IMG/VR virus record: IMGVR_UViG_2778261223_000007
Span: 12,132-76,131 of that record
Source: a virus
Taxonomy: Duplodnaviria > Heunggongvirae > Uroviricota > Caudoviricetes
Strand: one strand, 5' to 3'
DNA length: 64,000 bases
This document shows, one piece after another, positions 20,523 to 57,480 of the stretch (the stretch's first letter is position 1; every line of letters begins with the position of its first letter). The position numbers and the translations under genes were made by a program. The notes beneath the pieces are model-generated. The model made no database searches and had not been told where the DNA came from. It saw nothing but the letters and a program-made list of their open reading frames with translations.

Positions 20523-20540
20523 GTTAAATTTCTAACATAG
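20523..20540 (-). promoter_or_regulatory. C1-type operator-like motif
   Basis: The reverse complement is CTATGTTAGAAATTTAAC, matching the recurrent RTGTTAGAAAAYTAAWTT motif. Confidence 0.4.
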
Positions 20541-20623
20541 TGTATTTATATACACTGTTGATCCTGGTGGATGGGATCGAGTAGGATCGCGGTCACTGCT
20601 CCGGTAGCGACTGCCAAAAAAGC

Positions 20624-20650
20624 AAAAGCCGCTGAGAAGCGGCTTTTTGG
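20624..20650 (+). terminator. rho-independent terminator
   Basis: AGCCGC-TGAGAA-GCGGCT stem-loop followed by TTTTT. Confidence 0.7.
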
Positions 20651-20710
20651 GTGTATAAATCCACTGCCATAGATTTATACGGTAGATAGATTTTTTCACG
20701 GAACTATCTG

Positions 20711-21673
20711 GTGAGTATTTTAAATTCAGTTTCAGTAACTTTCAACACTTCTGAGTATAAAAACAACACTGAATACCACAAAAAAATCAAAGGTCATCAG
20801 TTGAGTTTTTTTGCTCGTCATAGCGGTCTTCTTTCCCCTTCACATAGCGCCATTATTGCCGAGTTCGCCAACCTGGCAGGGTCTACCGATGAATACATGA
20901 TCCGTCGCTCATATGCTGATATGTCCGAGATTACAGGACGCAGTATTTCTACTGTGCGCCGGGCATTTGCTGAAGCGACGAAGTGCGGAATGCTTGTTAA
21001 GCAACATCAGGTAGCGAATAACAATGCCCAGGTGTGTAACGTATATCGGTTTACGACACAATTTCTCCACTTCATTCATGTAGCAATGGAGATAGGGGGT
21101 AAGCAGGGCATCAAATTTGCCAACGCCACAAAACTGGTTAAGCAGTTGATTTCAAAGGTTCGTTATTTTTTTGAAACTGGGAACCCCCTGTTCAAATTGA
21201 ACAAGTCCCCCCATGTTCAAAATGAACAGCCAATAGAAAATAAGAGTCACTCTATAGCCAAAAGAAGAGAAAGATCATACGCGGTTCAGCCAAAGGCTTC
21301 ACCAGCAGATAGTTCTCAAACGGATAACGGTGTACTGGATAAAAAACCAGTAATCAGGGAAGAACATACCAACCACTGCCTGGCGGCGGCAAAAGCGAGA
21401 GCTGCAAAGCGTCGTTCAGACGAGGGGCACGCAAAACGGCAGGCTCTGTATCGTACCGCTGAAAAGCTGGCAAAAAAATTTGCATGGATACGTAGTGCCG
21501 CTACCGCAGTGAATAAGCCTAAACAATCCAATGCCCTGGATTTCTCAATGGATTATTCTGGCTCCCAGGGGTGTGCAACCATTGGTGAAGCCTTTGACCT
21601 GATGAAACAGCGTGGCTATCGGTCTGAATTTGACCGGGAGGATTGGTCAATCCCTGCGGGATTTAGGGGATGA
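20711..21673 (+). CDS. HTH DNA-binding protein, possibly a replication initiator or regulator
   Basis: 320 aa with a GTG start. It has an HTH (MSEITGRSISTVRRAFAEATKCGMLV) and a basic K/R-rich tail. Confidence 0.45.
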   Translation: MSILNSVSVTFNTSEYKNNTEYHKKIKGHQLSFFARHSGLLSPSHSAIIAEFANLAGSTDEYMIRRSYADMSEITGRSISTVRRAFAEATKCGMLVKQHQVANNNAQVCNVYRFTTQFLHFIHVAMEIGGKQGIKFANATKLVKQLISKVRYFFETGNPLFKLNKSPHVQNEQPIENKSHSIAKRRERSYAVQPKASPADSSQTDNGVLDKKPVIREEHTNHCLAAAKARAAKRRSDEGHAKRQALYRTAEKLAKKFAWIRSAATAVNKPKQSNALDFSMDYSGSQGCATIGEAFDLMKQRGYRSEFDREDWSIPAGFRG

Positions 21674-21726
21674 CCTGTGTGTCTACAAAGCATCCCAATG
21701 ATCGGAAAATGCCCGCTCGATGATTT

Positions 21727-21744
21727 ATGTTAGAAAATTAATTT
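21727..21744 (+). promoter_or_regulatory. C1-type operator-like motif upstream of immI-like module A
   Basis: ATGTTAGAAAATTAATTT. A partial inverted half, TTTCTAAAT, follows it. Confidence 0.45.
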
Positions 21745-22086
21745 GCTGTTTCTAAATCGGAATGTATGATCTGCATCATCGACTGAAGTCATCCATTGCT
21801 GAAATTTTTAGTTGATCTTCCATGTTTTCAGGCTTATATTCATGCCGTCGTAGCAAATTCTGCGACCAGGTTTGACAGCCTGAATGTTAGTGCGGACAAC
21901 CGCAGATTTCCGATATTGCGGTATTTTTGTGTCCGTAAACCGCGTTACGCCCGAATTATGGTGGGGCGTGATGGGGAGGCTTCGGCCTGCTGGTTTCACT
22001 AACGCCAGTCTGTCAACCCTGTCACGTCCTGCCACCTGTTTGACAGCGGGTAGCAGGTTGTTAAACCTGTTAGTGAGGCCGTAACT

Positions 22087-22311
22087 ATGGTTAATGCCAA
22101 TCCTTGCTCACGTCCAGAATTCATCTGGCGTTTCCACTCCCTGCAAAAACACTGCGATCACTTCGCAATTGCCGCAACCGAAAAAGAAGCCCGTTCTCTG
22201 ATCCCTGATCAGCATGGTGTTCTTACTGGTCGTTTCTCTACTTCCCCACAACCAAACACTAATCCCTGGTATCGCAATATTACCAATCCCGGCATTGCGG
22301 AGGCACACTGA
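22087..22311 (+). CDS. Icd-like small protein (module A)
   Basis: 74 aa. Its stop overlaps the Rha-like start (TGATG). It is a paralog of 58280..58495 (EFIWRF.S.QKH...AATE.EARS motif). Confidence 0.5.
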   Translation: MVNANPCSRPEFIWRFHSLQKHCDHFAIAATEKEARSLIPDQHGVLTGRFSTSPQPNTNPWYRNITNPGIAEAH

Positions 22312-23018
22312 TGGATATCTGCATTCTTGAAAAGCCATCAATGACCAGCATTGAGATCGCGGAGCTGGTGGGAAAACGTCATGACAATGTGAAGCGTACC
22401 ATTGAAACATTAGCCGAATCCGGCGTTATTGTTCGTCCTCAAATTGAGGATGAACCAAAAATAGATGTAATGGGGCGTTCTCGATTAATTCAGGTGTTCC
22501 GATTTAGCGACGAGCAAGGCAAACGAGACAGCATCATTGTAGTCGCACAGCTTTGTCCTGAGTTTACTGCCCGGCTGGTGGACCGCTGGCGCGAACTGGA
22601 AGAACAAGTACGCCAGCCGTTGACCGAAATAGAGATGATCGCCGCAATGGCTGCAAATGCAGTTCAGCAGCAAAAGCGGCTTCATGCTGTTGAGTCAAAG
22701 GTTAGCCAGGTCGCTGAAACCGTCGAGCAAATCAAGAAGGGCAATATGCCAGATGGCTACATTGGCTACCGCCAGCTGGCGGCGAAATGTGGCCTGACCG
22801 AAGCCAAATGCCGTAACCTGGTTAACGCTTACCGGATTCCCACCGATACACATGAGTTTTTAACTCCAGAGGGGGTATTGTCGCGTCGTTCCATCGTGGC
22901 CTTATCTCCCTTCATGAATGCTTTTAACCGGATGATGTCGGAGGCTGAACACCGAGGAAAACGCTGGTATCACCCCAAAATGGGGCAATTCCAGGTGATC
23001 GGTTGGGGAGGTGAGTGA
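22311..23018 (+). CDS. Rha-family phage regulatory / antirepressor-like protein (module A)
   Basis: 235 aa. The N-terminal motif SIEIAELVGKRHDNVKRTIE is typical of the Rha family. Its C-terminal half is ~90% identical to 58495..59421. Confidence 0.7.
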   Translation: MDICILEKPSMTSIEIAELVGKRHDNVKRTIETLAESGVIVRPQIEDEPKIDVMGRSRLIQVFRFSDEQGKRDSIIVVAQLCPEFTARLVDRWRELEEQVRQPLTEIEMIAAMAANAVQQQKRLHAVESKVSQVAETVEQIKKGNMPDGYIGYRQLAAKCGLTEAKCRNLVNAYRIPTDTHEFLTPEGVLSRRSIVALSPFMNAFNRMMSEAEHRGKRWYHPKMGQFQVIGWGGE

Positions 23019-23215
23019 TGGACATCATGCAGGCGGTAAAAAAAATCAGGGAAGGACAGGCTGAAGTGTGCCGCCGTAAAGCATGGAGTGTTGGTGTATG
23101 GGCCTGGCCTGATAATTACTCTACTACCGGATGGTTTTGTATTAATGGACTCCAGATCCGGGAAGTTGATTTATCGACGGCTGATATAGTCGGTAATGAT
23201 TGGATCGTGACTTGA
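23018..23215 (+). CDS. DUF2829 (Tad2-like) small protein
   Basis: 65 aa from an ATG overlapping the Rha stop. Motifs VCRRKAWS...GVWAWP...DLSTADIVGNDWIV match the DUF2829 pattern. In module B the same domain is fused to the Rha C-terminus. Confidence 0.5.
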   Translation: MDIMQAVKKIREGQAEVCRRKAWSVGVWAWPDNYSTTGWFCINGLQIREVDLSTADIVGNDWIVT

Positions 23216-23223
23216 AGCGTGAT

Positions 23224-23248
23224 GCCCCGGCCTGGCCGGGGCTTTTTT
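23224..23248. terminator. bidirectional rho-independent terminator
   Basis: GCCCCGG-CCTGG-CCGGGGC followed by TTTTTT. It lies between convergent genes. Confidence 0.75.
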
Positions 23249-23733
23249 CATGCCTCATTAGTTGAGGTTGCTGCGTCTCCGACTGGTAACAGAGCGGTAT
23301 TGCGTGGTTCGCCAGCAGGCCAGCGATAGCCAGACACTCTTGATGTTGGGAATGCGCGAATATTAACCGCATCCCCCTGGTTCCCACCCAGGACAAGCAG
23401 ATCGCCATTGGCGCGGCGTCCGACAACGAAGCCTACGTGCCCACCGCCTACACGGGTAAATACAACGATACATCCGTATGCCGGTGTATCTAATTTCTCG
23501 CCCCAATCCAGATAGGATTTTGCCGACTCAAATCTTGTTGAGCGGATGCCTACACGTTCCAGCATTGCACCGACAAATGCTGCGCACCACGGCGTTTCAT
23601 CGTCTTTAATTCCGCCGCGCTTGATGTCGCGCCAGAACTGAACGATTTCAGGGTTGTGTTTAGCGCCTTTTATTTCAGTCAGGCCAATGTGCTTACGGGC
23701 TTCAATTAGCCAGCGAGGTTCAATGTTTGCCAT
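23248..23733 (-). CDS. TIGR02594-family putative peptidoglycan hydrolase
   Basis: 161 aa. Motifs KHNPEIVQFW...TPWCAAFV...GGHVGFVVG are typical of the phage-associated TIGR02594/CHAP-like family. Confidence 0.55.
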   Translation of the reverse strand: MANIEPRWLIEARKHIGLTEIKGAKHNPEIVQFWRDIKRGGIKDDETPWCAAFVGAMLERVGIRSTRFESAKSYLDWGEKLDTPAYGCIVVFTRVGGGHVGFVVGRRANGDLLVLGGNQGDAVNIRAFPTSRVSGYRWPAGEPRNTALLPVGDAATSTNEA

Positions 23734-23884
23734 ATTTTTCTCCCGGTCATGGGTTAATAAGTAGGCAAACTATGGGGAGTATGTGATTTTGACGGTAGTA
23801 TCGTCCCCCTGAAAATAACATTCTCCATACCCTCTCAACCGTACCGCATAGCGGAATTTTTTACGGTTTAGAGGGGGAAATCCT

Positions 23885-31194: not shown

Positions 31195-31455
31195 ATGCGA
31201 AAGAATCGTAGGTTTACGGTCGAAGACCTAAAGGAATATTCCATATCGAAGGGGTATATCCTTGAGTTCCACCGATACAAGAAGGTTTTTACGCTGCGAA
31301 AAGCAGAAAACCCTGCGAACTGGAGCTGGATATACTTTCCTCACACCGATGATAAGTTGGTAGAACTTGTTGATGATTTAACCTATGAAGGTTGGTTGAT
31401 CGCAATCGACAAGACAATCAAAGAATTATCCGAACAGGATAAAATAACCCTTTAA
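31195..31455 (+). CDS. hypothetical protein
   Basis: 86-aa ORF whose start overlaps the previous stop. Confidence 0.45.
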   Translation: MRKNRRFTVEDLKEYSISKGYILEFHRYKKVFTLRKAENPANWSWIYFPHTDDKLVELVDDLTYEGWLIAIDKTIKELSEQDKITL

Positions 31456-31591
31456 AAATAACAGGTTGGGTAAATGCCATGCGATTTACCCTCCTTGTTG
31501 ATTAAGGTCGCTCTTTACTCTAAAAGCAAATCCGACCTGTTGCATATAGACCATCCTTGAGTAGTATCTCTCTTGTTTTACAAATCTAACG

Positions 31592-32086
31592 TTGTTGTTA
31601 TTATTTCGCATATTTACTATCAATTGGTGTGTTAGAAAAATAGCGCGAAAGAGAAGGCGTCGCAGTGAATATTCTGAAACATCCCCACATGCCGCAGCTC
31701 TTAGAGAACTGGAGAAAAACCCAGATCTAATCAAAAGGAACCATGAGCATTACGAGCAGGTTCGCGTCCTGGACTGGATGTATCGCAATATGCGTTATGT
31801 GTATGAGCATACTCACGCCACTCCAAACGGTGGCCTGCGAGGCATAAGGACGGCAATAAAAATGGTGGCAGAGGGCCAAAAGAAGGGATATCCCGATCTT
31901 TCTATAGACCTTGCTTGTGGGGGATACCACGGAATGCGCATTGAGATGAAACATGGGAGAAATCGCCTGACTCCCGAACAACTCGTCTGGATGACTCGCC
32001 TCACAGAAGCCGGTTACTACTGCTTTGAGGCGCGCAGTGCCGCTGAAGCCATAAAAGCTATCACGGAGTATGTTTGTCTTGATTAA
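31592..32086 (+). CDS. VRR-NUC domain nuclease-like protein. The true start is probably internal: TTG starts, with the ATGs at 31778 and 31790 as alternatives.
   Basis: C-terminal motif GIRTAIKMVAEGQKKGYPDLSIDLACGGYHGMRIEMKHGRNRLTPEQLVW matches VRR-NUC (G.KG.PDL...IE.K...S..Q..W). Confidence 0.6.
   Translation: MLLLFRIFTINWCVRKIARKRRRRSEYSETSPHAAALRELEKNPDLIKRNHEHYEQVRVLDWMYRNMRYVYEHTHATPNGGLRGIRTAIKMVAEGQKKGYPDLSIDLACGGYHGMRIEMKHGRNRLTPEQLVWMTRLTEAGYYCFEARSAAEAIKAITEYVCLD
31629..31646 (+). promoter_or_regulatory. partial C1-type operator-like motif
   Basis: GTGTTAGAAAAATAGCGC. The first 11 nt match the consensus. Confidence 0.3.
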
Positions 32087-32597: not shown

Positions 32598-32604
32598 TTG
32601 CATA

Positions 32605-32634
32605 AAAACCCGCCAATTAGCGGGTTTTTTGTTT
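32605..32634 (+). terminator. rho-independent terminator
   Basis: AACCCGC-CAATTA-GCGGGTT followed by TTTTT. Confidence 0.8.
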
Positions 32635-32671
32635 ATTGCATCTTCCGATACCGTCATCAAACTAATAAAAT

Positions 32672-32689
32672 ATGTTAGAAAACTAATTT
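32672..32689 (+). promoter_or_regulatory. C1-type operator-like motif
   Basis: ATGTTAGAAAACTAATTT, lying 22 nt upstream of the next gene. Confidence 0.45.
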
Positions 32690-33920: not shown

Positions 33921-33938
33921 GTGTTAGAAATCTAAAAT
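33921..33938 (+). promoter_or_regulatory. C1-type operator-like motif
   Basis: GTGTTAGAAATCTAAAAT. Confidence 0.4.
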
Positions 33939-34571
33939 CACAATTCGAATGTGTTGATTGTGAAGGTAACTTAACATAGAATTTTCCTTGCTGGTGGGCG
34001 GTACCCACGTTTCGCTTGCTGGGCTTGATAGTCACTTATTGGTTATTGTTCGCCCACCAGCATTTAACAAATTAAAGCGTTAGAAAAGTATAGTAACGCA
34101 AGAGCACGCTTTGGCACTGTGCAGGCAAAAGTTCAGCAGGTTTAGTGCGGAAAGTGGTTTCAGAGAGAGCACTTTGCGGAGTAAACGACAATACATGTTG
34201 AGCCACGGAAGGTCTTTTTAAGGTGTTCATTGATGATGGTCCGGCAGAGAGTAACGGTACATGCTGCATCTAATCATCAATGCACATCTTCAACATTAAG
34301 GAGGCATAGGGATTTTTGTGGCGGTTACCTTTTGCCCTGAGTCTCCTTAATGTTGCAGTAATGCACCTATGCGGATGTGGCCTTGCATTGTGTCTTGAAA
34401 GAATGGGGTAAGGCCGGGGATATCCCCAGGGGGAGGCACTCCCGCTGCAACGAACAGCCACAGACGGCAGTCGAGTGATGGGAACGTGAAAAGACTTTAA
34501 ACCTCGTTATGGCTGGCGTGGCAAACGCGACAACCGAGACAGAGCGGTGACGGGCGGAGAGAGTGCCGCAT

Positions 34572-35153: not shown

Positions 35154-35229
35154 GATGGTGTAGCTCAGCGGTTAGAGCGGTTGACTGTTAATCAACGGGT
35201 CGATGGTTCAAATCCATCCACCATCGCCA
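35154..35229 (+). tRNA. tRNA-Asn (GTT)
   Basis: Canonical cloverleaf with a 7-bp acceptor GATGGTG/CACCATC, a TTCAAAT T-loop, an encoded CCA, and the anticodon loop CTGTTAA. Confidence 0.9.
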
Positions 35230-35231
35230 AT

Positions 35232-35307
35232 GCCGGTTTAGCTCAGTTGGTAGAGCGCCTGCCTTGTAAGCAGGATGTCAGCGGTTCGAGTCCGTTAATC
35301 GGCACCA
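35232..35307 (+). tRNA. tRNA-Thr (TGT)
   Basis: Acceptor GCCGGTT/AATCGGC, T-loop TTCGAGT, encoded CCA, and anticodon loop CTTGTAA. It starts 2 nt after tRNA-Asn. Confidence 0.9.
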
Positions 35308-35315
35308 GCACAACA

Positions 35316-35389
35316 GGTAAGGGTATTTTGCGACGTCGGAGATCGCCGAGCTTGGCAGAGGGTTCGAATCCCTACGAAGTACCCTTACC
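35316..35389 (+). other. tRNA-like structured element: a 10-bp perfect stem enclosing a T-arm-like GAGGGTTCGAATCCCTA. The cloverleaf is not canonical.
   Basis: GGTAAGGGTA ... TACCCTTACC with an internal TTCGAAT T-loop consensus. There is no clean D or anticodon arm. Confidence 0.3.
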
Positions 35390-35535
35390 GTTGTGATGAA
35401 GTGCAGCTCTTTGAAGCAACCAGAAGATAAGCATCTGGCTTCACAACATAAACCGCAGGAACGACCAATAAACGGTAGTCCGTACGGAGAACACCCCGTT
35501 GAGGAAGAGGCCTGGCCGGAACCGTAACCGGCACT

Positions 35536-35627
35536 ACAACGTTGAGAACACTGGCGTAACGGGGTCATATCCCAATCTACGAATAAATGTTGCGTTGCAG
35601 CGTGACAACCAGTGTTCTCAACGTTGT
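35536..35627. repeat. 19-bp perfect inverted repeat separated by 54 nt
   Basis: ACAACGTTGAGAACACTGG at 35536-35554 and CCAGTGTTCTCAACGTTGT at 35609-35627. Confidence 0.6.
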
Positions 35628-35772
35628 GGTGGATTCGCAGGCTGATGCGATAGCTTTCTTGGATGTTAGGGAAATGCGGCCGCAAATCTTCCCTTTCGCG
35701 AGCGGTGATCGTCCGTAGTCCTAATTGGCTGCACCGTATGCCGGAGATTCAGTACCGGCCACCACAACGGCC

Positions 35773-35859
35773 GGAGAGTAGGGCGCATGGTGCTCAAGCG
35801 GTCTTGAAAACCGTCCCATTGCGCAAGCGATGATGGTTCGATTCCATTACTCTCCGCCA
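35773..35859 (+). tRNA. degenerate type-II tRNA-like gene, tRNA-Ser(TGA)-like and possibly a pseudo-tRNA
   Basis: Acceptor GGAGAGT/ACTCTCC with CCA; anticodon stem-loop GCGGT-CTTGAAA-ACCGT; long variable arm; T-arm GATGG-TTCGATT-CCATT. The D-arm is irregular. Confidence 0.35.
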
Positions 35860-36126
35860 GCGCAACGTTAAGAGTATTTGGCTAATTAAGCGAATGCCGG
35901 AAGCAGAACCGGATCACCAAATGCGTACAGGCGTCATCGCCGCCCAGCCAGCCAAGTGCTCTTACCATTGCGGTGAATGCGGCTAAGCGCACGCGGAACA
36001 GTTAAAACAATCCTCCTTAGTGGTTAAGTCAAAAATCCCGGCGTTAATTGTTAACTGGTTAACGTCACCTGGAGGCACCAGGCACCGCAACCTAATAAAT
36101 ACGTCATGTTTATTGAGGGATAACCA

Positions 36127-36561
36127 ATGTTCGGTAAATTTTTCGGTAAGAAAGTCGCTTCAGCAAAAGTAGAGCTGAAAAGGGTTGAGAATCGCGATCT
36201 GATGGAGGCCATTATCGGTGGCTGTTTGTTGGTGTCTGCCGCAGATGGTGAAATCGAAAAGGAAGAAACAGCGAAACTTGATCAGCTTGTCCGCTCTAAT
36301 CCTCGCTTAAGTCATTTTGGCAACGAAATTACCGCAACAATCACCCGTTTTACTGAGCAACTGGAAGCTGGTTTCCGTGTTGGTCGCATGAATATCCTTC
36401 GCGAAATTGAAGATATCAAAAATGATCCAAAAGAAGCGGAAGAAGTATTCGTTAACATGCTGACGATTGCAGAAGCGGACGGTGAAATCGAGCCAGCAGA
36501 ACACAAAGTACTGGAAGAAGTAGGCCGTCGTTTGGGCCTTCGTGTGGAAGATTATCTGTAA
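36127..36561 (+). CDS. tciA: TerB-like protein (TciA-like, tellurite/phage-exclusion family)
   Basis: 144 aa with duplicated acidic motifs LLVSAADGEIEKEE and LTIAEADGEIEPAEHKVLEEVGRRLGL typical of TerB. Confidence 0.7.
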   Translation: MFGKFFGKKVASAKVELKRVENRDLMEAIIGGCLLVSAADGEIEKEETAKLDQLVRSNPRLSHFGNEITATITRFTEQLEAGFRVGRMNILREIEDIKNDPKEAEEVFVNMLTIAEADGEIEPAEHKVLEEVGRRLGLRVEDYL

Positions 36562-36725
36562 TGATTGGCAAGGCGCGTATTGCGTGCGCCATTGGTTTTC
36601 TCGTTTTGTCCGTGCTGGTGGATTTCACCAGCAAAGTGATGTCGGTGTTGGCTGATGGGGCACTGGTTTCAGTAGCTGTGGTATTGCTATTGCCGATTAT
36701 TAAAGCTGCGTTCAGGAACTCATGA
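36561..36725 (+). CDS. small membrane peptide (TciB position)
   Basis: 54-aa ORF not in the track (MIGKARIACAIGFLVLSVLVDF...). It has two hydrophobic segments and is coupled to the tciA stop (TAATG). Confidence 0.45.
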   Translation: MIGKARIACAIGFLVLSVLVDFTSKVMSVLADGALVSVAVVLLLPIIKAAFRNS

Positions 36726-36835
36726 TGGATTTTTGGACGTATATTGATAAGAACCCTGGATGGTCTTTGCTATTTCTGCTTGTGATCGTATACGGAGTAG
36801 AACAAGTAGCGAAGAATCTCAGGCGTCGAAAATAA
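36722..36835 (+). CDS. small membrane peptide (TciC position)
   Basis: 37-aa ORF (MMDFWTYIDKNPGWSLLFLLVIVYGVEQVAKNLRRRK) overlapping the previous stop. Confidence 0.4.
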   Translation: MMDFWTYIDKNPGWSLLFLLVIVYGVEQVAKNLRRRK

Positions 36836-36844
36836 AAACTAATT

Positions 36845-36920
36845 GGCCCCTTAGCTCAGTGGTTAGAGCTGGCGACTCATAATCGCACGGTCACCGGTTC
36901 AAGTCCGGTAGGGGCCACCA
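36845..36920 (+). tRNA. tRNA with CAT anticodon (Met or lysidine-modified Ile2 type)
   Basis: Perfect 7-bp acceptor GGCCCCT/AGGGGCC, D-arm GCTC-AGTGGTTA-GAGC, anticodon loop CTCATAA, T-loop TTCAAGT, encoded CCA. Confidence 0.85.
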
Positions 36921-37950: not shown

Positions 37951-38342
37951 TGTACGGGACTACCAAATTAAGCACTCAACAGGCCACCAATATTGAGTGG
38001 TCTATCGCTAACTGTAAGATCGTGTCATGCAATGCCACGCGTACTGATGTGGGCCATAAAAGCACTATAACAGGCTATCTAGTAATGACCACCAGGGGGA
38101 TGAGGGTTAGATTTCGTTGGAAAGCAGAGCAAGTAACGCCATTCAGAGAGCCATCAATGCCGCTGCAGGTTGAGCAGGATTATCTATGTTTACCAGAAAT
38201 AGATGGCGGAATGCTGGTGGAGTCTGATGGTAGTAAGGCTGATTTTGAAGCCAATTTGAAGCTGGCACAGGCCGTAATCAATAGTTATCGCGGACAGTGG
38301 ATCGCAAAAGTGAAACATGTTGTTCGTTTGTCTCGCTGGTAG
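37950..38342 (+). CDS. hypothetical protein
   Basis: 130-aa ORF coupled to the previous gene (ATGA overlap). Confidence 0.5.
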   Translation: MYGTTKLSTQQATNIEWSIANCKIVSCNATRTDVGHKSTITGYLVMTTRGMRVRFRWKAEQVTPFREPSMPLQVEQDYLCLPEIDGGMLVESDGSKADFEANLKLAQAVINSYRGQWIAKVKHVVRLSRW

Positions 38343-38354
38343 TATTAGATATTT

Positions 38355-38372
38355 GGTATTAATTTTCTAATA
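38355..38372 (-). promoter_or_regulatory. C1-type operator-like motif (partial), embedded in an 8-bp palindrome GTATTAGA..TCTAATAC
   Basis: The reverse complement is GTATTAGAAAATTAATAC. It lies upstream of the lpa-position gene. Confidence 0.35.
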
Positions 38373-38450
38373 CAATCATCTTTTTGCCAGTCTATACAGT
38401 TTTAACATTCTCATTATCATCCCCTCGGTCATTTCCTGCCCGGGGGATTA

Positions 38451-41739: not shown

Positions 41740-42777
41740 TTACCAGAGCTTCGCGGCGTACTGCGTTTGGGGGAATGTGTATCCGTAACGTTCTTCGATT
41801 GCTTTGCCGTATTTTTTACGAGCTTCATTCAGTTTAATGCCGGTCAGGTCGTCTCCAGAGGCCATCATTACGTCTAACAATTCCAGATCCATTTTATCCA
41901 GCCTTGCCATTGCTTCACGTGATGTACGTATCTTACGCTCAATGATATGGCGAATAGCCGGATCGGCATCCTCCAGCATCTTAGCGGATTTCTGCTTAAG
42001 GCTTTCATTGCGAATATCGATGTTCCTTAAGATGTACGACTTCGCAACGTAGCTTGGCTGGTGTTTTTCCAGGTCACGAACACGATATAAGTTAAAATCG
42101 CCGAGAAGGCTGCAAGGTACCGATTCGACGCCAGAATAAATTGTAATGCTCCGGCGTTCACCAACATTATTGACAACGGGGATCGTTGTCTTCGGTTGTC
42201 TTGCGAAAACCAATGCGCCATGTGCGCCAACTCTAAAGCGAGAAAGGGCATTGCTGCCTTCGATGTTTGTTGTCAGCACAACATCTGTATATGCCTCTTT
42301 ACGCGCCCGGTAGATCTCGCCTTCAGGCTCAGCTTCAAAGAAGCGCTGTTCTTCTTCAAGAGCACCTACGATTTGAGAAAAAACCCTATTTTTCAGGCTT
42401 TTCTTTATGATTTTGTCGTATTTTTTTAGCAATTGTTCACGTGTAAATGTACGTGTTGTTGTAGCGCTTTGCACAACGACATGCGTGCTTTGATTGGTGT
42501 CCTCAATGATGAATGGGATCGGAGAATATACAGACTCAACAATGTTCGACGCTTTGCCGTCGGCATCGCGGCACATGTCAACGAAGGCTTTCCATTCAGC
42601 AAGACATTTTTCAGCTTCTTCTAATATGTTTTGGTCATGCGTTAATGCAACATGGCGGAATTCCTCGCCAGCATAACTGGTATCATGGAAAACAGAGTTT
42701 GCGACCACCAGCTCTTTCCACCGTTCAGCGGTTTGCAGGAACCGTTTGTACTCTTTCTCGATCGACTTCTTACTCAT
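41740..42777 (-). CDS. hypothetical 345-aa protein. Position and operator-like repeats in its promoter make it a candidate C1-type immunity repressor, though this is unverified.
   Basis: Long minus-strand ORF between pacB and rox. Two operator-like motifs lie just upstream of its start. No similarity was recognised from the sequence itself. Confidence 0.5.
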   Translation of the reverse strand: MSKKSIEKEYKRFLQTAERWKELVVANSVFHDTSYAGEEFRHVALTHDQNILEEAEKCLAEWKAFVDMCRDADGKASNIVESVYSPIPFIIEDTNQSTHVVVQSATTTRTFTREQLLKKYDKIIKKSLKNRVFSQIVGALEEEQRFFEAEPEGEIYRARKEAYTDVVLTTNIEGSNALSRFRVGAHGALVFARQPKTTIPVVNNVGERRSITIYSGVESVPCSLLGDFNLYRVRDLEKHQPSYVAKSYILRNIDIRNESLKQKSAKMLEDADPAIRHIIERKIRTSREAMARLDKMDLELLDVMMASGDDLTGIKLNEARKKYGKAIEERYGYTFPQTQYAAKLW

Positions 42778-42788: not shown

Positions 42789-42806
42789 GATTTAGTTTTC
42801 TAACAT
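42789..42806 (-). promoter_or_regulatory. C1-type operator-like motif
   Basis: The reverse complement is ATGTTAGAAAACTAAATC. It lies 12 nt upstream of the 345-aa gene start. Confidence 0.45.
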
Positions 42807-42877: not shown

Positions 42878-42893
42878 ATTTTAGAAAACCAAC
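42878..42893 (+). promoter_or_regulatory. partial operator-like motif
   Basis: TTTTAGAAAACCAACC. Confidence 0.25.
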
Positions 42894-42986
42894 CGTAGAA
42901 ACCACACTTCGCTAATTAAAGACCATGAAGGCAACGTGTTACTGGTCATCATCAATCTATGATGGATTAAAAAAAATCGGCATTTT

Positions 42987-43171: not shown

Positions 43172-44200
43172 ATGAGTGAATTAATTATCTCTGGCAGTTC
43201 CGGTGGTTTTCTGCGCAACATTGGCAAAGAGTACCAGGAAGCCGCAGAAAACTTTATGCGGTTCATGAATGATCAGGGTGCTTATGCGCCGAATACTCTG
43301 CGCGACCTCCGGTTGGTGTTTCATTCCTGGGCGCGCTGGTGTCACGCTCGCCAGCTTGCCTGGTTTCCGATCTCACCAGAAATGGCCCGCGAGTATTTTC
43401 TTCAGTTGCATGATGCCGATCTGGCTTCGACCACCATTGATAAGCACTACGCCATGCTTAACATGCTGCTTTCTCATTGTGGCCTTCCGCCACTTTCGGA
43501 TGATAAAAGTGTTTCTCTGGCTATGCGGCGTATCCGGCGCGAAGCGGCAACGGAAAAAGGCGAACGAACAGGCCAGGCTATACCGCTGCGATGGGACGAC
43601 CTGAAACTGCTCGACGTCCTGTTGTCCAGGTCAGAACGGCTGGTGGACCTGCGCAACCGGGCTTTTCTCTTTGTTGCATACAATACGCTGATGCGTATGT
43701 CGGAAATCTCGCGTATTCGTGTAGGAGATCTGGACCAAACAGGTGACACTGTCACGCTACATATTTCACACACGAAGACAATAACGACCGCCGCCGGGCT
43801 TGATAAGGTGCTTTCCCGTCGCACTACTGCTGTGCTGAATGACTGGCTGGATGTTTCCGGGCTTCGTGAACATCCTGACGCGGTGCTGTTCCCGCCGATA
43901 CACCGTAGCAATAAGGCCAGGATTACGACAACGCCCCTTACTGCACCTGCAATGGAGAAAATATTCAGCGACGCCTGGGTGTTGCTGAATAAAAGGGATG
44001 CCACGCCAAACAAAGGGAGATACCGGACGTGGACCGGGCATAGTGCTCGTGTCGGGGCCGCTATCGATATGGCTGAAAAGCAGGTGTCTATGGTGGAGAT
44101 TATGCAGGAAGGAACCTGGAAGAAACCGGAAACACTTATGCGGTATCTGCGCCGTGGCGGTGTGTCTGTGGGGGCTAATAGCCGCTTGATGGATTCATAA
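43172..44200 (+). CDS. dre: Dre tyrosine recombinase (Cre homologue)
   Basis: 342 aa. It aligns along its whole length with Cre (WFP..PE..R.Y...L...GL...TI..H...LNML...GLP.PSD...VSL.MRRIR...GER..QA....DL....A.NTL.R..EI.RIRV.D...GHSARVGAA.DMA). Confidence 0.92.
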   Translation: MSELIISGSSGGFLRNIGKEYQEAAENFMRFMNDQGAYAPNTLRDLRLVFHSWARWCHARQLAWFPISPEMAREYFLQLHDADLASTTIDKHYAMLNMLLSHCGLPPLSDDKSVSLAMRRIRREAATEKGERTGQAIPLRWDDLKLLDVLLSRSERLVDLRNRAFLFVAYNTLMRMSEISRIRVGDLDQTGDTVTLHISHTKTITTAAGLDKVLSRRTTAVLNDWLDVSGLREHPDAVLFPPIHRSNKARITTTPLTAPAMEKIFSDAWVLLNKRDATPNKGRYRTWTGHSARVGAAIDMAEKQVSMVEIMQEGTWKKPETLMRYLRRGGVSVGANSRLMDS

Positions 44201-44216
44201 ATTAAATTTCTAACAC
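44199..44216 (-). promoter_or_regulatory. C1-type operator-like motif
   Basis: The reverse complement is GTGTTAGAAATTTAATTT. Confidence 0.4.
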
Positions 44217-51043: not shown

Positions 51044-51044
51044 A

Positions 51045-53423: not shown

Positions 53424-53441
53424 GTGTTAGAAAACTAAAAT
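53424..53441 (+). promoter_or_regulatory. C1-type operator-like motif
   Basis: GTGTTAGAAAACTAAAAT. It is followed by the partial repeat ATGTTCTAAC. Confidence 0.4.
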
Positions 53442-53480
53442 CAATGTTCTAACGTAATTTTGAGTGCGTAAATGATTTGA

Positions 53481-54173: not shown

Positions 54174-54481
54174 GCGGCAACCTTCTCCCGCAGCCAGATA
54201 CAAACTGGACCATCTTCAGTGTCATGAATAGAGCCAACAAACCAGCCTTCACCCTCTGGTCGCTCCGGTTCCCAGGCGGCAATATCGGGACCAGCTGCGT
54301 CCAGATCAAAATCATCTTCATCCATACTGCGAATAGTCCACTGAAGATTATTTTCCTTCATCCAGGCGTCAAATTCCTCAGTGGAAATATATTCACGACC
54401 TGCGCAAAACTTCTCATACTCCGGATGTGTCCAGCAGCCATATTCATCACGTTCTACCGGCATTTCTTTAATGATGCTCAC
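54170..54481 (-). CDS. hypothetical acidic protein
   Basis: 103 aa. Confidence 0.45.
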
Positions 54482-54702
54482 TCTTCATCCTCCAAGTCGG
54501 CAACGGCCTCCATCACATCAGAACCGCGAATAACCGCAAAAGCACGGCAGGCCATTTCAAACACCTGTTGTTCTTGCGGATGCGGTGACTCCCAATACTT
54601 AAAACCAGGTCGATGCTCGTAACCCATCATGGAATAAAAATCGCCAGCAAGTTCAATCGCGGCATCAACAAGTTCGCGATTTGTCATCGTCTGTTCTGTC
54701 AT
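54478..54702 (-). CDS. hypothetical protein
   Basis: 74 aa with overlapping stop/start. Confidence 0.4.
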   Translation of the reverse strand: MTEQTMTNRELVDAAIELAGDFYSMMGYEHRPGFKYWESPHPQEQQVFEMACRAFAVIRGSDVMEAVADLEDEE

Positions 54703-54973
54703 TTGGTTTCTCCTGTCTGAACATCACTATCATCAGGTCGCCTTTTATCGCTATTCTGGCTGTTGTGCCTGGTTCAATGCGGCTAAGTTCAAATGCGTCA
54801 TAGAACGCTTCTAATGCCTTCTGGCGTAGTTCCTGTTTGCGCCGTTTTTTCCACTCTTTTAGGAAAATGGAACCCAGCCATCGCCAGGTACGGGACATGA
54901 TGTAAAGCCAACCGAGAAGTGCCAGACCGGTATTTAGGGCCGTATCGATCGTTATCGTGGTGTCGATATTCAC
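54665..54973 (-). CDS. small membrane protein
   Basis: 102 aa with a hydrophobic N-terminus. Confidence 0.4.
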   Translation of the reverse strand: MNIDTTITIDTALNTGLALLGWLYIMSRTWRWLGSIFLKEWKKRRKQELRQKALEAFYDAFELSRIEPGTTARIAIKGDLMIVMFRQEKPNDRTDDDKSRTC

Positions 54974-55251
54974 TGTGGTGGCTCCTGCTTTTCTGCCTTT
55001 AATACCATGCGAGAACCATCATCCAGCTCCCAATTAATTTCACCGCCTTCAGCCATGACTAGATGCCAAACGAGTTGTGCGGCCTCGTTGGTTACATCAC
55101 GACCGCGATCATTGCCGACACGACGTTTTGTTCCATCCCCTAAGTCACGCATTTTTGCCAACACGATGGTTTTTGATAGCGGTGAAAAACCAAGCTGTAG
55201 TCGTGCGGTATTACTCACTGTTTGCCTCCTTTGCGAAGCTGTTCCGCCCAT
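54970..55251 (-). CDS. hypothetical protein
   Basis: 93 aa. Confidence 0.35.
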   Translation of the reverse strand: MGGTASQRRQTVSNTARLQLGFSPLSKTIVLAKMRDLGDGTKRRVGNDRGRDVTNEAAQLVWHLVMAEGGEINWELDDGSRMVLKAEKQEPPQ

Positions 55252-55703
55252 TCTTCAAGGGATTTCTCCGCATATTCACCGGACAGGCCATCAATCGGGT
55301 GCGGTTCATTAGCCAACTCTTCTTTCGCTGACAGAATCATGCGCGTAACGTCGAAAACTTCACGTAAAGACTTATTGATAAATCCGTGGTTGAAAGCAGC
55401 AGCAAGACGGCTTGCGGTATAGTTAATCCCCTCGTTGCGAGCCGCCGCACGAATTTCAGCCAGAAAAGCATCGGTGGCTGGAGTTTCGCTGTGGTGCAGG
55501 GCATCGTTGATAATCATTGCAGCAACTCCGGCCTGACCTGCATCCGTGACCGACACATGCTCAAGAGTTACAGCCATTGCATGTTTCAGCCCAGCATTCT
55601 CCGCCGCCAGCGCAGCACACGCTTTCTCAAGTCGGGAAATTTCCGTTACATACTCAGCGTTACGCTCTGCCAGTTGTGCGGGCGTTAAACCTTCAGACTT
55701 CAT
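55215..55703 (-). CDS. ead/Ea22-like protein
   Basis: 162 aa. Confidence 0.4.
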   Translation of the reverse strand: MKSEGLTPAQLAERNAEYVTEISRLEKACAALAAENAGLKHAMAVTLEHVSVTDAGQAGVAAMIINDALHHSETPATDAFLAEIRAAARNEGINYTASRLAAAFNHGFINKSLREVFDVTRMILSAKEELANEPHPIDGLSGEYAEKSLEEWAEQLRKGGKQ

Positions 55704-56010
55704 ACACTCTCCTTTCGAAATAAACGTACTGATTAATCATGCCTAGGGGCATTTCGAGTTTTTCCGCGATCTCACGGCGGGGAACACCACACCGATGAAG
55801 CTGCCGTGCCAGTTCTATATCGCCCTGCCGGTATTTGGCTGACGGGTGAAAGTCTCCTTTCAGAATCATGCAGATCCGCAGTTGCCGCGCTTTGGTTCTG
55901 ACAGCACTACCGGTACGCCCGATCAGCCTCCCAATACTCTCGACTGTCATAGTCCCGGCGCACTGGCGGAGTATCATGATTTCTGCCCTTCCCCATCCCC
56001 GCCAGCTCAC
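55693..56010 (-). CDS. HTH protein
   Basis: 105 aa with a C-terminal HTH (RREIAEKLEMPLGMINQYV). Confidence 0.4.
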   Translation of the reverse strand: MSWRGWGRAEIMILRQCAGTMTVESIGRLIGRTGSAVRTKARQLRICMILKGDFHPSAKYRQGDIELARQLHRCGVPRREIAEKLEMPLGMINQYVYFERRVYEV

Positions 56011-56618
56011 GCAGAACTCCTTCTAACCAAAAGCACGCCATCTTCAGAAACAACGTTGCAGGACTTCAGGTAATTCATTGCCTCTTTCGGTAATGGATTC
56101 TTTGGATCGGCGTTTGCCAGGGATTTCGATAACCTCATGATAAATTTGATCATTACCTTCTGGCGGAGCTTGTGCTCATGAGATAAAGACAGGTAATAGG
56201 AAATGGTATGGGCTAAACGCTCACGAAGCTGTTCTGTGCCGTGATATACAGCAGCGATATCACACAGTGCATTGACCAGTTCCCGGTAAATATGCGGAGC
56301 AACCTGGCATTCAATGTTGGTTGGTGACTCATAAATTACAGTCAGCCCCAGCTTTTCAGCCAGCGCGTGCTCTGCACGAGCACCAATCGATTCCTCCCAT
56401 CGATTGAGCAAGTAGATCGCATCAGCAGAACGCACCATTGCCAGGCAAATATCCATGTATTCACTCTGACAAAGGCCACCAGGTAACACAGCTGGATTCA
56501 GAACGATATGCCCTTCAGCCATCAGCTCGCTCGCTTTCGCATTAAACGCAGCACGGTTGTAATCTGGATAACCAGTCATCGGCCCCGCGATGTAAATTTT
56601 CAAAACACGTTTCACCAT
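56007..56618 (-). CDS. DUF4406-like (nucleoside 2-deoxyribosyltransferase-fold) protein
   Basis: 203 aa from the Met coupled to the upstream micro-ORF. Motif KIYIAGPMTGYPDYN. Confidence 0.5.
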   Translation of the reverse strand: MVKRVLKIYIAGPMTGYPDYNRAAFNAKASELMAEGHIVLNPAVLPGGLCQSEYMDICLAMVRSADAIYLLNRWEESIGARAEHALAEKLGLTVIYESPTNIECQVAPHIYRELVNALCDIAAVYHGTEQLRERLAHTISYYLSLSHEHKLRQKVMIKFIMRLSKSLANADPKNPLPKEAMNYLKSCNVVSEDGVLLVRRSSA

Positions 56619-56773
56619 CAAAATTTCCCCAAAATCGTGACGCAAAACATAAGCACTGCGAAAAGCTCAATACCAAGCTCAAGTAGCGCCAACGCCCCGA
56701 AAAACAACACATAGAACAGGCCAATCTCATTCACAGATGGCTGGTGGATCGCACTTAAAGCTATAAGCATCAT
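56618..56773 (-). CDS. 51-aa hydrophobic micro-protein translationally coupled (TGATG) to the DUF4406-like gene
   Basis: MMLIALSAIHQPSVNEIGLFYVLFFGALALLELGIELFAVLMFCVTILGKF. It is not in the ORF track. Confidence 0.35.
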   Translation of the reverse strand: MMLIALSAIHQPSVNEIGLFYVLFFGALALLELGIELFAVLMFCVTILGKF

Positions 56774-56811
56774 GTCCTCCAAACAGTTATCAGGAATGAT
56801 ATTAATGTTTT

Positions 56812-56829
56812 GTGTTAGAAAATCAATTT
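56812..56829 (+). promoter_or_regulatory. C1-type operator-like motif in the divergent ref / ea-operon promoter region
   Basis: GTGTTAGAAAATCAATTT. P1 ref is known to be C1-controlled. Confidence 0.5.
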
Positions 56830-56890
56830 TGAATATCTAATCATTTTGATCAATCATAGAAAAATCGCTGAAAAGTAAGAGGCAGCCATC

Positions 56891-57469
56891 ATGCAGAAAC
56901 AGAGCTATTGGGAGAAACAGAGACAAAAAGCCATGCAAAAATTGGCTGACCCAGCCTGGCGAGAGGAACAAAGGGCAAAGTGCCTTCAACAAGCTCAACG
57001 CCAGCAGCAGCGAGCGAGAGAAAAAGCCGCATCGCCTGAATATCGGCAAAAGAAAATTGAAAAAGCAAAGCAATATGAACAGCGGAGAAAAGATAAAGCT
57101 GTATCCGCTCCGTCCAAAAAAACACGCACGTCACGCGGCCTGAAAGGCAGATCACTCACAGCCGATGAACGCCGGATACAGACCGCTATCGGTGCTCTCC
57201 CCTGCATTGCCTGCCATATTCACGGGCAACATAGCCCAGTGGTATCCCTGCACCATATCTTCGGGAGAACGGCAGAGAACGCGCATAAATATGTCCTCCC
57301 TTTGTGTAAATGGCACCACCAGTACGCAGCGCCAGCCGAGGTCCGAGAACAATATCCCTGGCTGGTCCCTGTTCATGCTGACGGAAAAATAGGCGGAAAA
57401 GCAGATTTCATGCGGCACAATGCCGATGAAATGACGTTGTATCAGATGGCGATTGAATTGATAAATTAG
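56891..57469 (+). CDS. ref: Ref (recombination enhancement function, HNH endonuclease)
   Basis: 192 aa. The C-terminal half matches P1 Ref (ALPCIAC...SLHHI.GRTA...LPLC.WHHQ.AAPAEVRE.YPWLVPVHADG). Confidence 0.85.
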   Translation: MQKQSYWEKQRQKAMQKLADPAWREEQRAKCLQQAQRQQQRAREKAASPEYRQKKIEKAKQYEQRRKDKAVSAPSKKTRTSRGLKGRSLTADERRIQTAIGALPCIACHIHGQHSPVVSLHHIFGRTAENAHKYVLPLCKWHHQYAAPAEVREQYPWLVPVHADGKIGGKADFMRHNADEMTLYQMAIELIN

Positions 57470-57480
57470 TTTTCTAACAT
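57463..57480 (-). promoter_or_regulatory. C1-type operator-like motif
   Basis: The reverse complement is ATGTTAGAAAACTAATTT. Confidence 0.4.

Follow-up and report, generated by a model that had tools for sequence, protein, structure and literature searches.

Near-identical copies of an 18-bp word recur in both orientations along this DNA, raising the question of what recognizes them and which genes they control. With 99% identity to MF356679, the window (the whole 64,000-nt stretch analysed) represents a plasmid prophage of the phage D6 type; phage D6 is a relative of P1. Copies of the repeated word are very probably the operators at which the C1-type master repressor of this prophage acts. 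We infer that C1 is the binder, that its binding represses, and which promoter each site serves. The operators of phage D6 have so far been without annotation, and the set described here is an added member of the P1-type design.

The word RTGTTAGAAAAYTAAWTT has three exact matches in the window (21727+, 32672+ and 57463−). Allowing up to three mismatches yields 11 matches, against 0.56 ± 0.72 expected from dinucleotide-preserving shuffles, whose maximum is 2. The nine near-identical copies listed in a sequence-only reading of this DNA are all present, the first of them at 20521 rather than 20523. In a k-mer count no 10-mer of the window outnumbers TGTTAGAAAA; its 7 copies tie with those of a Chi-containing word, and the other enriched 10-mers are Chi-related words only. 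A PWM separates 10 loci of at least 24.8 bits from a weak tail of at most 16 bits, and no match of at least 20 bits occurs in 200 random shuffles of the window that keep its base composition. This PWM shuffle test is circular, since these very sites served to train the PWM; the consensus search and the k-mer count are independent of it. Three further copies had been described as partial. Those at 31629 and 42878 are weak (8–11 bits), but the one at 38355 is half of a strong bivalent site (38342–38373). Two extra weak sites, at 34077 and 31575, are supported by position, the former by conservation too.

A conserved T at position −1 lengthens the motif, which is thus 19 bp rather than 18 bp, with the consensus T-RTGTTAGAAA-WYTAAWWT. 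The D6-type operator consists of an invariant 5′ core and a degenerate AT-rich tail. The sites had been taken as asymmetric, and this holds for the single-site form, found at about seven loci. Three strong window loci are instead 32-bp inverted pairs, so not every site is single and asymmetric; one more pair lies elsewhere in D6, and the inverted partner at a fourth window locus (21727–21758) is weak. The cores of these pairs face outward, their tails overlap by 4 bp, and the core spacing is fixed at 20 bp. Intergenic placement had been set beforehand as the refuting test. The strong copies in the window all lie within the approximately 10% of DNA that is non-coding, and in the full D6 genome (89.5% coding, 10.5% non-coding) each of the 13 strong loci is either intergenic or reaches no further than the final bases of a CDS (p ~2e-13). 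Those touching CDS ends lie at the dre and ref stop codons.

The presumed binder is encoded by c1 (41740–42777, minus strand), a 345-aa C1-family prophage repressor. The sequence-only reading mistook this "345-aa gene next to rox" for an accessory target, when it is the repressor gene itself. Its product corresponds to D6_1, annotated as "prophage repressor, similar to P1 C1", and has a precomputed Pfam match to PF27008 (Phage_P7_repressor_C1), the family to which the homologous P1/P7 repressors belong. It shares 20% amino acid identity with P1 C1 over 242 aa (BLASTP, E 9e-8) and is longer (345 aa vs 283 aa). The gene order pacB, c1, rox/lox, recombinase is common to D6 and P1, so that c1 occupies the same genomic position, and C1 is the sole P1-type immunity repressor found. 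The c1-proximal operator ATGTTAGAAAACTAAATC (42789–42806, minus strand) lies 11 nt before the c1 ATG, downstream of a conserved candidate promoter, TTTACT-17-TAAATT (42850–42822). In an alignment of five elements whose C1 proteins are 44–100% identical, the core of this operator, TGTTAGAAAA, is the sole 10-column invariant block upstream of c1. An operator before c1 implies autoregulation, not accessory-gene control. A weak distal c1 operator, ATTTTAGAAAACCAACCG (42878–42895, plus strand; 8–9 bits), is inverted relative to the proximal one at 89 bp centre to centre, and the related elements L010 and L011 carry a full-strength TGTTAGAAAA site at this position.

In the proposed mechanism, C1 would recognize the asymmetric 19-bp site, and each 32-bp bivalent operator would take up two C1 molecules. 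At most operator sites a candidate promoter overlaps or adjoins the operator; the calls are weak consensus matches (8–9 out of 12), and a strict promoter scan returns fewer promoter-like sites than in shuffles. With sites lying across, directly against or beside sigma-70-type promoters, bound C1 would keep RNA polymerase out or trap it. The lysogen would thereby silence lytic replication from repL, both c4-icd-antirepressor modules, lpa, ref and the ea-like early operon, as well as the pdcB-pmgU, pmgS, tRNA/tci and dut-isaA operons, and C1 would repress its own gene by negative autoregulation. The genes behind the sites would then reasonably be assigned to the prophage-repressed early class.

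A group of operators precedes replication, immunity and late-control genes. The repL operator (20521–20538, minus strand) lies upstream of the lytic replication gene repL and is the positional counterpart of P1 OrepL. Its core end forms the −10 of a candidate promoter, TTGCCT-16-TAACAT (20511–20538), and L006 has a site upstream of repL-family genes too. The operator of immI module 1 (21727–21758) precedes c4-1, icd1 and an antirepressor gene. It combines a strong site (21727–21744, plus strand) with a weak inverted partner (21741–21758, minus strand) and is the counterpart of P1 Oc4, situated some 200 bp before c4. Rfam matches place a C4 antisense RNA at 21954–22039 and the c4-a1b1 target at 21834–21886. 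The bivalent 32-bp lpa operator (38342–38373), GTATTAGA-N16-TCTAATAC, is located upstream of the late promoter activator gene lpa, whose product matches Pfam BPP1_LPA (E 5e-57), and corresponds to P1 Olpa. Both half-sites are kept in L006 and L011 with a variable centre. Approximately 20 bp separate this operator from the best conserved promoter downstream of it, a poor fit to simple occlusion.

Two operators flank ref. The bivalent ref/ea operator (56812–56843) lies in the divergent region between ref (plus strand) and the ea-like early operon (minus strand), contains candidate −35 hexamers of both divergent promoters, and is the counterpart of P1 Oref. The ref divergent region holds a near-perfect 32-bp palindrome in L006 and TTCTAAGG in L009. 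The ref-stop operator (57463–57480, minus strand), an exact match, overlaps the ref stop codon and is the positional homologue of P1 Omat (2628–2645), which covers the end of ref (2637) in the same way. A candidate promoter, TTGAAT-16-TAACAT, lies at 57453–57480, and the operator precedes orf86/orf85 and immI module 2 (c4-2, icd2 and antirepressor 2; C4 RNA at 58138–58225). Operators thus stand before both modules that had been called icd/ant-like, as claimed, but their antirepressors are of the Rha/KilA type and not homologues of P1 ant.

The remaining operators are found in front of accessory operons. The pmgS operator (32672–32689, plus strand), an exact match, lies directly upstream of pmgS, which encodes a 402/407-aa coiled-coil protein. 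A terminator-like hairpin (32604–32629) and a candidate −10, TAAAAT (32666–32671), lie upstream of it. It is kept in L006 and L010 and is the counterpart of P1 OpmgRa/b; the P1 record states that OpmgR "controls pmgR and pmgS". The tRNA/tciA/tciB operator (33921–33938, plus strand) heads its operon, is the counterpart of P1 Obanab, and is followed by the promoter-like TTGATT-17-TAGAAT (33954–33982); tRNA-Asn, Thr, Ser and Met are located on the plus strand at 35154–36920. Downstream of the same promoter lies a second, weak operator, GCGTTAGAAAAGTATAGT (34077–34094, plus strand), which scores 11 bits in the window and 13.7 bits in the D6 version, which starts with GTG. A second site at similar spacing occurs in L006 (28363/28200) and L010 (16693/16568).

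The dre-stop operator (44199–44216, minus strand) overlaps the dre stop codon, precedes the orf117-orf116-dut-orf114-isaA operon and is the analogue of P1 Ossb, both operons ending in isaA. The interval downstream of the recombinase gene carries the site in L006, L007, L010 and L011, and TTCTAAGG instead in L008 and L009. Between ppp and pdcB (DUF968), a bivalent operator (53424–53455) precedes the pdcB-to-pmgU operon on the minus strand and encloses a candidate promoter, TTGATT-17-TATTTT (53444–53416); it is bivalent in L006 likewise. Sites are also present before the VRR-NUC gene, pmgM, as had been reported, but these are weak ones only. The pmgM promoter region (31575–31646) holds operator-like sites at 31575–31592 and 31629–31646 (10–11 bits), the latter reading GTGTTAGAAAAATAGCGC and kept in L006, together with a strong sigma-70-like promoter with TG, TTTACA-16-TATTAT (31577–31604). 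The gene pmgM is an uncertain member of the regulon. Four of the sites had been listed without gene names; those at 20521, 33921, 44199 and 53424 lie before repL, tRNA/tci, orf117-dut-isaA and pdcB-to-pmgU, respectively.

The C1 repressor of P1 has 22 dispersed operators, whose asymmetric 17-bp consensus is ATTGCTCTAATAAATTT (PMC8546580). Their positions were taken from the protein_bind features of AF234172/NC_005856. The C1 regulon of P1/P7 includes Oref, Omat, Ossb, Oc4, OrepL, Orlf, Odmt, Obanab, O26, Oppp, OpmgRa/b, OpmgT, Olpa and c1/coi, and the D6 sites correspond, nearly one for one, to the annotated Oref, Omat, Oc4, OrepL, Olpa, OpmgR, Oban, Ossb, Odmt and the c1 region. In both systems, more than 10 dispersed asymmetric operators of 17–19 bp combine a conserved 5′ core with an AT-rich tail. 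Both have monovalent operators and bivalent ones with cores outside and tails overlapping, as in P1 Obanab, although the bivalent site is 32 bp in D6 and 28 bp in P1. The shared targets are ref, c4-icd-antirepressor, repL, lpa, pmgR/S, the tRNA operon, the hrdC-dmt operon and c1. The architecture proposed for these sites, that of the P1 C1 regulon, is supported, in position site by site as well as in form. As in lambda-type CI/Cro control, a prophage master repressor with autoregulation is proposed for D6 C1. Lambda operators, however, are dyad-symmetric, bound by HTH dimers and clustered at OL/OR, whereas D6 sites are asymmetric and genome-wide, spread over more than 37 kb of the window without such clustering.

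The operator word itself is different, as had also been noted. D6 has TRTGTTAGAAAWYTAAWWT and P1 has ATTGCTCTAATAAATTT; the similarity is not significant, the alignment of the two consensus sequences not being above shuffles. The P1 core is found 18 times in P1, not at all in the window and once in D6 (chance level), and the D6 core is absent from P1. Because the D6 operators do not match the P1/P7 consensus, they fall into a different specificity class from P1/P7 immunity. No homologues of P1 Coi, Lxc, Ant1/2, KilA, Ssb or Ban were found in D6. In tblastn searches of D6 and the window, P1 Coi has no match at E ≤ 1 and P1 Lxc has only a 12-residue chance-level match (E 0.8); orf13, at the lxc position, has no similarity to Lxc. 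With Lxc and Coi homologues undetectable, the D6 circuit differs from the P1 circuit. D6 also differs from P1 in having two immI modules with Rha/KilA-type antirepressors.

Across the relatives, those with C1 44–70% identical to D6 C1 keep TGTTAGAAA, those with C1 29–30% identical carry TTCTAAGG at the same places, and the P1 word is TGCTCTAAT. The D6 core has 10–13 copies in D6-clade elements (C1 44–100% identical) and 0–1 elsewhere, and TTCTAAGG has 9 and 4 copies in two plasmids with C1 29–30% identical, at the same genomic positions. The Citrobacter/Leclercia P1/D6-like plasmids NZ_CP099368 and NZ_CP042508 show the same synteny as D6, and their C1 is just 29–30% identical to D6 C1. They carry a third word, wAATTCTAAGGnTTT, with sites, as in D6, upstream of c1, after the recombinase gene and in the ref divergent region, and further shared places upstream of rdgC/hrdC and in the lpa/pmgS region. 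To our knowledge, no C1-type regulons have been described for these plasmids. In these comparisons, the operator word shifts with the C1 clade at fixed positions, as a distinct repressor specificity predicts, and the earlier proposal of such a specificity is supported.

This covariation involves the whole phage lineage and not C1 alone, and therefore does not by itself single out C1. It would also be seen if the sites were bound by another regulator (a phage HTH, Rha or HigA-like protein, or a host nucleoid protein) while C1 acted elsewhere, and D6 C1 is just 20% identical to P1 C1. Such a binder is nonetheless improbable. About ten orthologous places coincide with annotated P1 C1 operators, the site 11 nt before c1 is the sole invariant block there, and the pK91 remnant, with little of D6 beyond c1, dre and some accessory genes next to them, keeps both flanking sites. 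A host factor would read one and the same word in Escherichia/Shigella, Citrobacter/Leclercia and P1 elements, all of which live in enterobacteria.

Slightly less probable again is that the word is no repressor site but a shared promoter module (an unusual −10/−35 or UP-like element) or is bound by a phage activator, e.g., Lpa. At two loci the core end TCTAACAT gives a −10-like TAACAT, at others the AT-rich tails give TTGAxx hexamers, and beside the tRNA-operon promoter one site shares bases with a P1-like late −22 box. This reading fits poorly with a word that points either way with respect to the gene behind it, at places ranging from ahead of −35 to past +1, that forms palindromic pairs with fixed core spacing, and that precedes even lpa and c1. 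The word also differs from the P1 late-promoter box AAGTGACTT, which the window contains no more often than by chance. A functionless chance or compositional repeat has a negligible probability, even though the intergenic DNA is AT-rich and the motif tail low in information: the excess over the dinucleotide-preserving shuffles and the lack of PWM matches of at least 20 bits in the 200 random shuffles speak against it, and the core stays unchanged between elements in which the DNA around it can no longer be aligned. The shuffle controls and this conservation rule it out.

Under the preferred reading of C1 operators, the form of the sites may relate to the fold of the repressor. For an AlphaFold model of C1 residues 1–235 (moderate confidence), E. 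coli Tus (PF05472), the protein that binds the replication terminus sites, is the only significant PDB match with two programs, while sequence support for a C1-Tus relationship is marginal at best. The conserved C1-family core (PF27008, ~245 residues) could adopt the Tus fold, with one C1 laying a Tus-like cleft along ~18 bp, and we rate this model-based proposal at slightly short of an even chance. Such a cleft of a single C1 would account for the length and asymmetry of P1- and D6-type operators and for their strict core and loose tail. By structural analogy, Tus-Ter also has a long asymmetric site (23 bp for Ter), but serves fork arrest vs transcriptional repression by C1. The likeness of the D6 operator to TerB (TATGTT...AACTAA; TerB sequence from PMC4499146) is not significant against shuffles (p 0.08–0.14). 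If the Tus reading is true, each C1 clade would have re-tuned its word (TGCTCTAAT, TGTTAGAAA, TTCTAAGG), Tus would no longer be an orphan fold, and the question would arise whether bound C1 is an orientation-dependent roadblock. A C-terminal helical hairpin, C1 residues 250–345, is restricted to closer relatives of D6 C1.

Escherichia phage D6 (MF356679), a plasmid prophage related to P1, and about 100 near-full-length plasmids of E. coli and Salmonella in PLSDB share 99% identity with the window. Relative to D6, the window is the reverse complement of 69520-91159 joined to 1-42781, and its Cin segment is inverted. Operators are annotated neither in the D6 record nor in the older immC record. 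The pattern RTGTTAGAAAAYTAAWTT, which a sequence-only reading had proposed as the operator of a P1 C1-type regulon, has three exact matches in the window and 11 matches with ≤3 mismatches, compared to 0.56 expected from dinucleotide-preserving shuffles (highest count 2). All nine copies reported as near-identical were found in the window, with 20523 corrected to 20521-20538. The three copies reported as partial are present too; those at 31629 and 42878 are weak, and 38355 belongs to a strong inverted pair as one of its halves. A position weight matrix separated 10 loci (≥24.8 bits) from a tail at ≤16 bits, and 200 random shuffles of the window gave no hit of ≥20 bits, a circular test, as these sites had served to train the matrix. 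In a 10-mer count independent of the proposed pattern, TGTTAGAAAA is the top word of the window with 7 copies, tied with a Chi-containing word, and the other enriched 10-mers are Chi-related words only. The conserved stretch reaches one base further left, with 9 of 10 sites having T at -1. In the resulting consensus, T-RTGTTAGAAA-WYTAAWWT, an 11-bp core is strict and the AT-rich tail behind it looser. Weak matches at 60345, 61231 and 61278, near mat/simB, lack conservation in L006, a relative carrying the D6-type word, and were treated as chance. Chi itself (GCTGGTGG) occurs 36 times in the window (24 on the + and 12 on the - strand; 1.9 expected), mostly between 19.9 and 63.2 kb, with a single copy in the first 19.8 kb, where the tail and tail-fibre genes lie.

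Beyond the window, a scan of the whole D6 genome added two loci, the first between gene 23 and orf52 and the second an inverted pair at D6 64115-64146 (64115/64129) upstream of hrdC-dcm-dmt, whose P1 counterpart is Odmt. None of the 13 strong D6 loci reaches further into a gene than its final bases, as at the stop codons of dre and ref; the others are intergenic. With 89.5% of D6 coding, this placement has p ~2e-13, so intergenic placement, which the sequence-only reading had chosen as its own refutation test, favours the motif.

The D6-type sites show a nearly one-to-one positional match to the annotated C1 operators of P1, taken from the protein-binding features of its GenBank record. Site 56812 serves the divergent ref and ea-like promoters (P1 Oref). 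Site 57463 overlaps the ref stop codon, as P1 Omat does, and is followed by orf86/85 and then immI module 2. The genes behind the other sites are c4-1, icd1 and antirepressor 1 at 21727 (Oc4), repL at 20521 (OrepL), lpa at 38342-38373 (Olpa), pmgS at 32672 (OpmgRa/b), an operon with isaA as its last gene at 44199 (Ossb) and c1 at 42789 (the P1 c1 operators). The pdcB (DUF968) to pmgU operon lies behind 53424, with OpmgT as the nearest P1 analogue. The lpa product matches Pfam BPP1_LPA (E 5e-57). Site 33921 corresponds to P1 Obanab and heads an operon of tRNA-Asn/Thr/Ser, tciA/B and tRNA-Met. ARAGORN places the tRNA genes on the + strand of the window. Three of them (35154-35859; D6 7145-7850) are annotated on the + strand in the D6 record, and ARAGORN and Rfam put them on the opposite strand, the same as tciA/tciB; they are therefore members of the operon headed by 33921. 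Sites claimed for the VRR-NUC gene (pmgM) are present, but they are weak and surround a strong sigma-70-like promoter at 31577-31604. The annotated pmgM TTG start (31592) falls inside this promoter (TTTACA-16-TATTAT with TG), and the true start looks like the GTG at 31666, preceded by AGAGAAGG. Rfam identified C4 antisense RNA in both immunity modules, at 21954-22039 and 58138-58225. Both immI-type modules in the window are complete, each with C4 RNA, icd and an antirepressor; module 1 (21834-22039) carries a c4-a1b1 target element, and module 2 (58016-58094, 58138-58225) has an isrK-like RNA directly upstream of C4.

Three loci in the window (38342-38373, 53424-53455 and 56812-56843) are 32-bp inverted pairs, and a fourth (21727-21758) is a strong site with only a weak inverted partner. 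The geometry of the pairs is constant: TTAGAA occupies positions 4-9 and TTCTAA or ATCTAA positions 24-29, so that the cores face outward and the AT-rich tails share 4 bp. The annotated divalent P1 operator Obanab likewise has its cores outside and its tails overlapping, but spans 28 bp compared to 32 bp in the D6-type pairs. At three places, strong or weak sites flank a candidate promoter on both sides, namely c1 (42878 and 42789), the tRNA operon (33921 and 34077) and pmgM (31575 and 31629). The second sites at c1 and the tRNA operon are weak in the window, and are conserved or at full strength in relatives.

Candidate promoters overlapping or abutting the sites came from a relaxed sigma-70 scan only; they are weak consensus matches that do not by themselves indicate function. 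With strict sigma-70 criteria, few promoters were seen at the sites, and promoter-like sites were fewer than in shuffles. The operators at repL and 57463 are placed between a good -35 (TTGCCT, TTGAAT) and a -10, TAACAT, made by the end of their own core. The bivalent sites at pdcB and ref/ea cover candidate -35 hexamers. The pmgS and c1 sites begin directly behind the candidate -10 or a few bases further on, and would therefore cover the transcript start; at the tRNA operon the site and its degenerate inverted partner abut the candidate -35. An upstream candidate c1 promoter, TTTACT-17-TAAATT, is kept in 4 of 5 relatives. C1 very probably binds each 19-bp site, with two molecules on the 32-bp sites, and bound C1 would block RNA polymerase. 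P1 C1 is described as acting in this way, on 22 dispersed operators that share an asymmetric consensus of 17 bp (PMC8546580). The predicted geometry at lpa does not fit simple occlusion: a conserved -10, TATCAT (38415-38420), puts the bivalent operator (38342-38373) about 20 bp upstream of the -35, so that it does not overlap the sole conserved promoter-like element. A hairpin in the lpa leader (38421-38448), located after the -10 and before the start codon, is conserved, with CCCCTCGG...CCCGGGGG in D6 and CCTCCGG...CCGGAGG in the relatives L010 and L011, apparently a compensatory change. This hairpin may be a translational or attenuation element.

The 345-aa gene next to rox, listed in the sequence-only reading among the controlled genes, does have a site and is c1 itself (D6_1). 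Its product is matched by Pfam Phage_P7_repressor_C1 (PF27008) among the precomputed matches, and shares 20% identity with P1 C1 over 242 residues (E 9e-8). An operator placed 11 nt ahead of the c1 start codon implies autoregulation. No homologues of P1 Coi, Lxc, Ant1, KilA, Ssb, Ban or C8 were found by tblastn in the window and the D6 genome. The D6-type circuit differs from that of P1 in having no detectable Coi, Lxc, Ant1/2 and KilA homologues, and in having two C4-controlled modules with Rha/KilA-type antirepressors. The product of orf13 (31195-31455, 86 aa), whose gene occupies the P1 lxc position next to ulx, was considered as a possible Lxc, but it has no similarity to Lxc.

The motif was further compared in relatives whose C1 proteins are 70%, 68%, 51%, 44%, 30% and 29% identical to that of the window. 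In those with 44-70% identity, TGTTAGAAA is kept at the same places, bivalent at ref/ea, ppp/pdcB and lpa, and the tails drift. In an alignment of the c1 upstream region of five elements, TGTTAGAAAA is the sole ten-column invariant block and the surrounding DNA is scrambled; upstream of lpa, both half-sites are retained and the centre varies. The Leclercia (NZ_CP042508; C1 30%) and Citrobacter (NZ_CP099368; C1 29%) plasmids have no D6-type site and instead carry wAATTCTAAGGnTTT 4 and 9 times, with copies at 8084, 9478, 19212 and 24325 in the former, and at 5778, 13617, 15159, 18377, 19886, 26035, 26215 and 39800 in the latter. This word is found upstream of both c1 and rdgC/hrdC, directly behind the stop codon of the recombinase gene, in the divergent region at ref, and in the lpa/pmgS region. 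With most copies at D6/P1 operator positions, it probably represents a third operator class. The P1 core TGC[TA]CTAAT occurs 18 times in P1 and 0-1 times elsewhere, the D6 core TGTTAGAAA 4-13 times in D6-clade elements and 0-1 times elsewhere, and TTCTAAGG 9 times in the Citrobacter and 4 times in the Leclercia plasmid, with chance levels elsewhere. Pairwise alignment of the P1, D6 and Citrobacter-type consensus words gave no significant similarity. These results agree with the earlier claim of a word distinct from that of P1. A TCTAA/TTAGA pentamer as a core common to the three was dropped, as the alignment scores are at chance.

If a repressor diverges, its operators would be expected to stay in place and to change their word with the repressor clade, as is seen here. 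Because the phage lineage diverges as a whole, such covariation by itself does not point to C1 in particular. The link from motif to C1 comes from positional homology with the P1 operators and from C1 being the sole P1-type immunity repressor present. The P1 C1 operators have been defined experimentally. The motif was also compared with the -22 box of P1 late promoters as another possible identity, but that box is a different word, with only two occurrences in the window, at chance level. Apart from the corrections given here, the sequence-only reading of a P1 C1-type regulon is supported.

This kind of system is textbook P1 biology, and D6 and its c1 gene are already known and annotated. The novelty seems to lie in the explicit D6-type operator map and consensus, the bivalent geometry, the stability of the word down to 44% C1 identity and the switch to a third word in a sister clade. 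A full-text literature search for the motif and for D6 with operator returned nothing relevant, and the D6 genome paper, Gilcrease & Casjens 2018, may contain these sites already. The map is ready for use with D6-type plasmid prophages, which are common in E. coli, Salmonella and Shigella (about 100 near-full-length in PLSDB). From the map follow predictions of the accessory genes silenced in the lysogen and of heteroimmunity with P1, and P1-based tools could use D6-type operators as orthogonal parts. Three words, one per clade and at constant positions, offer a natural series for specificity change in a monomeric repressor.

No solved structure of a C1 relative was found by hmmsearch against the PDB. 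An AlphaFold2 model of full-length C1 (9 sequences; pLDDT 80, pTM 0.50) is alpha/beta in its N-terminal part and has a long helical hairpin at the C-terminus. An exhaustive profile search of 1.84 billion representative proteins found only 84 clusters of C1 relatives, and among those more distant, most have 250-290 residues and match positions 5-245 only, so the N-terminal part is the conserved core. With a model of residues 1-235 (pLDDT 74.7, pTM 0.59), Foldseek matched only four Tus-Ter chains among solved structures at E ≤1e-3 (E 5e-8 to 1.4e-5, TM 0.40-0.49; next match E 0.12). Tus is a monomer that binds an asymmetric 23-bp site via an interdomain beta-sheet. Support at the sequence level is weak. 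A 76-sequence C1 profile aligned by hhalign to a shallow Tus profile gave 10.9% probability (E 0.003, 139 co-linear columns), and a shallow C1 profile gave 0.2%. A search for Tus homologues returned only sequences >80% identical and so no useful profile. The D6 operator (TATGTT...AACTAA) was also tried as a TerB-like site, with no significance over chance (p 0.08-0.14; TerB sequence from PMC4499146). A C1-Tus link was not found in a literature search. The models hint, with at most moderate confidence, at a Tus-like C1 core that may be the reason for the asymmetric site; we treat this as a lead and not as a result. If confirmed, it would be the first structural rationale for asymmetric C1 operators.

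A D6-like remnant is carried by the conjugative IncFIB resistance plasmid pK91 of S. Typhi (NZ_CP029871, 14036-21893). In this remnant c1 is intact (68% identical) and is kept together with the recombinase gene and the two flanking operators; if expressed, this c1 could give immunity to phages of the same C1 class.
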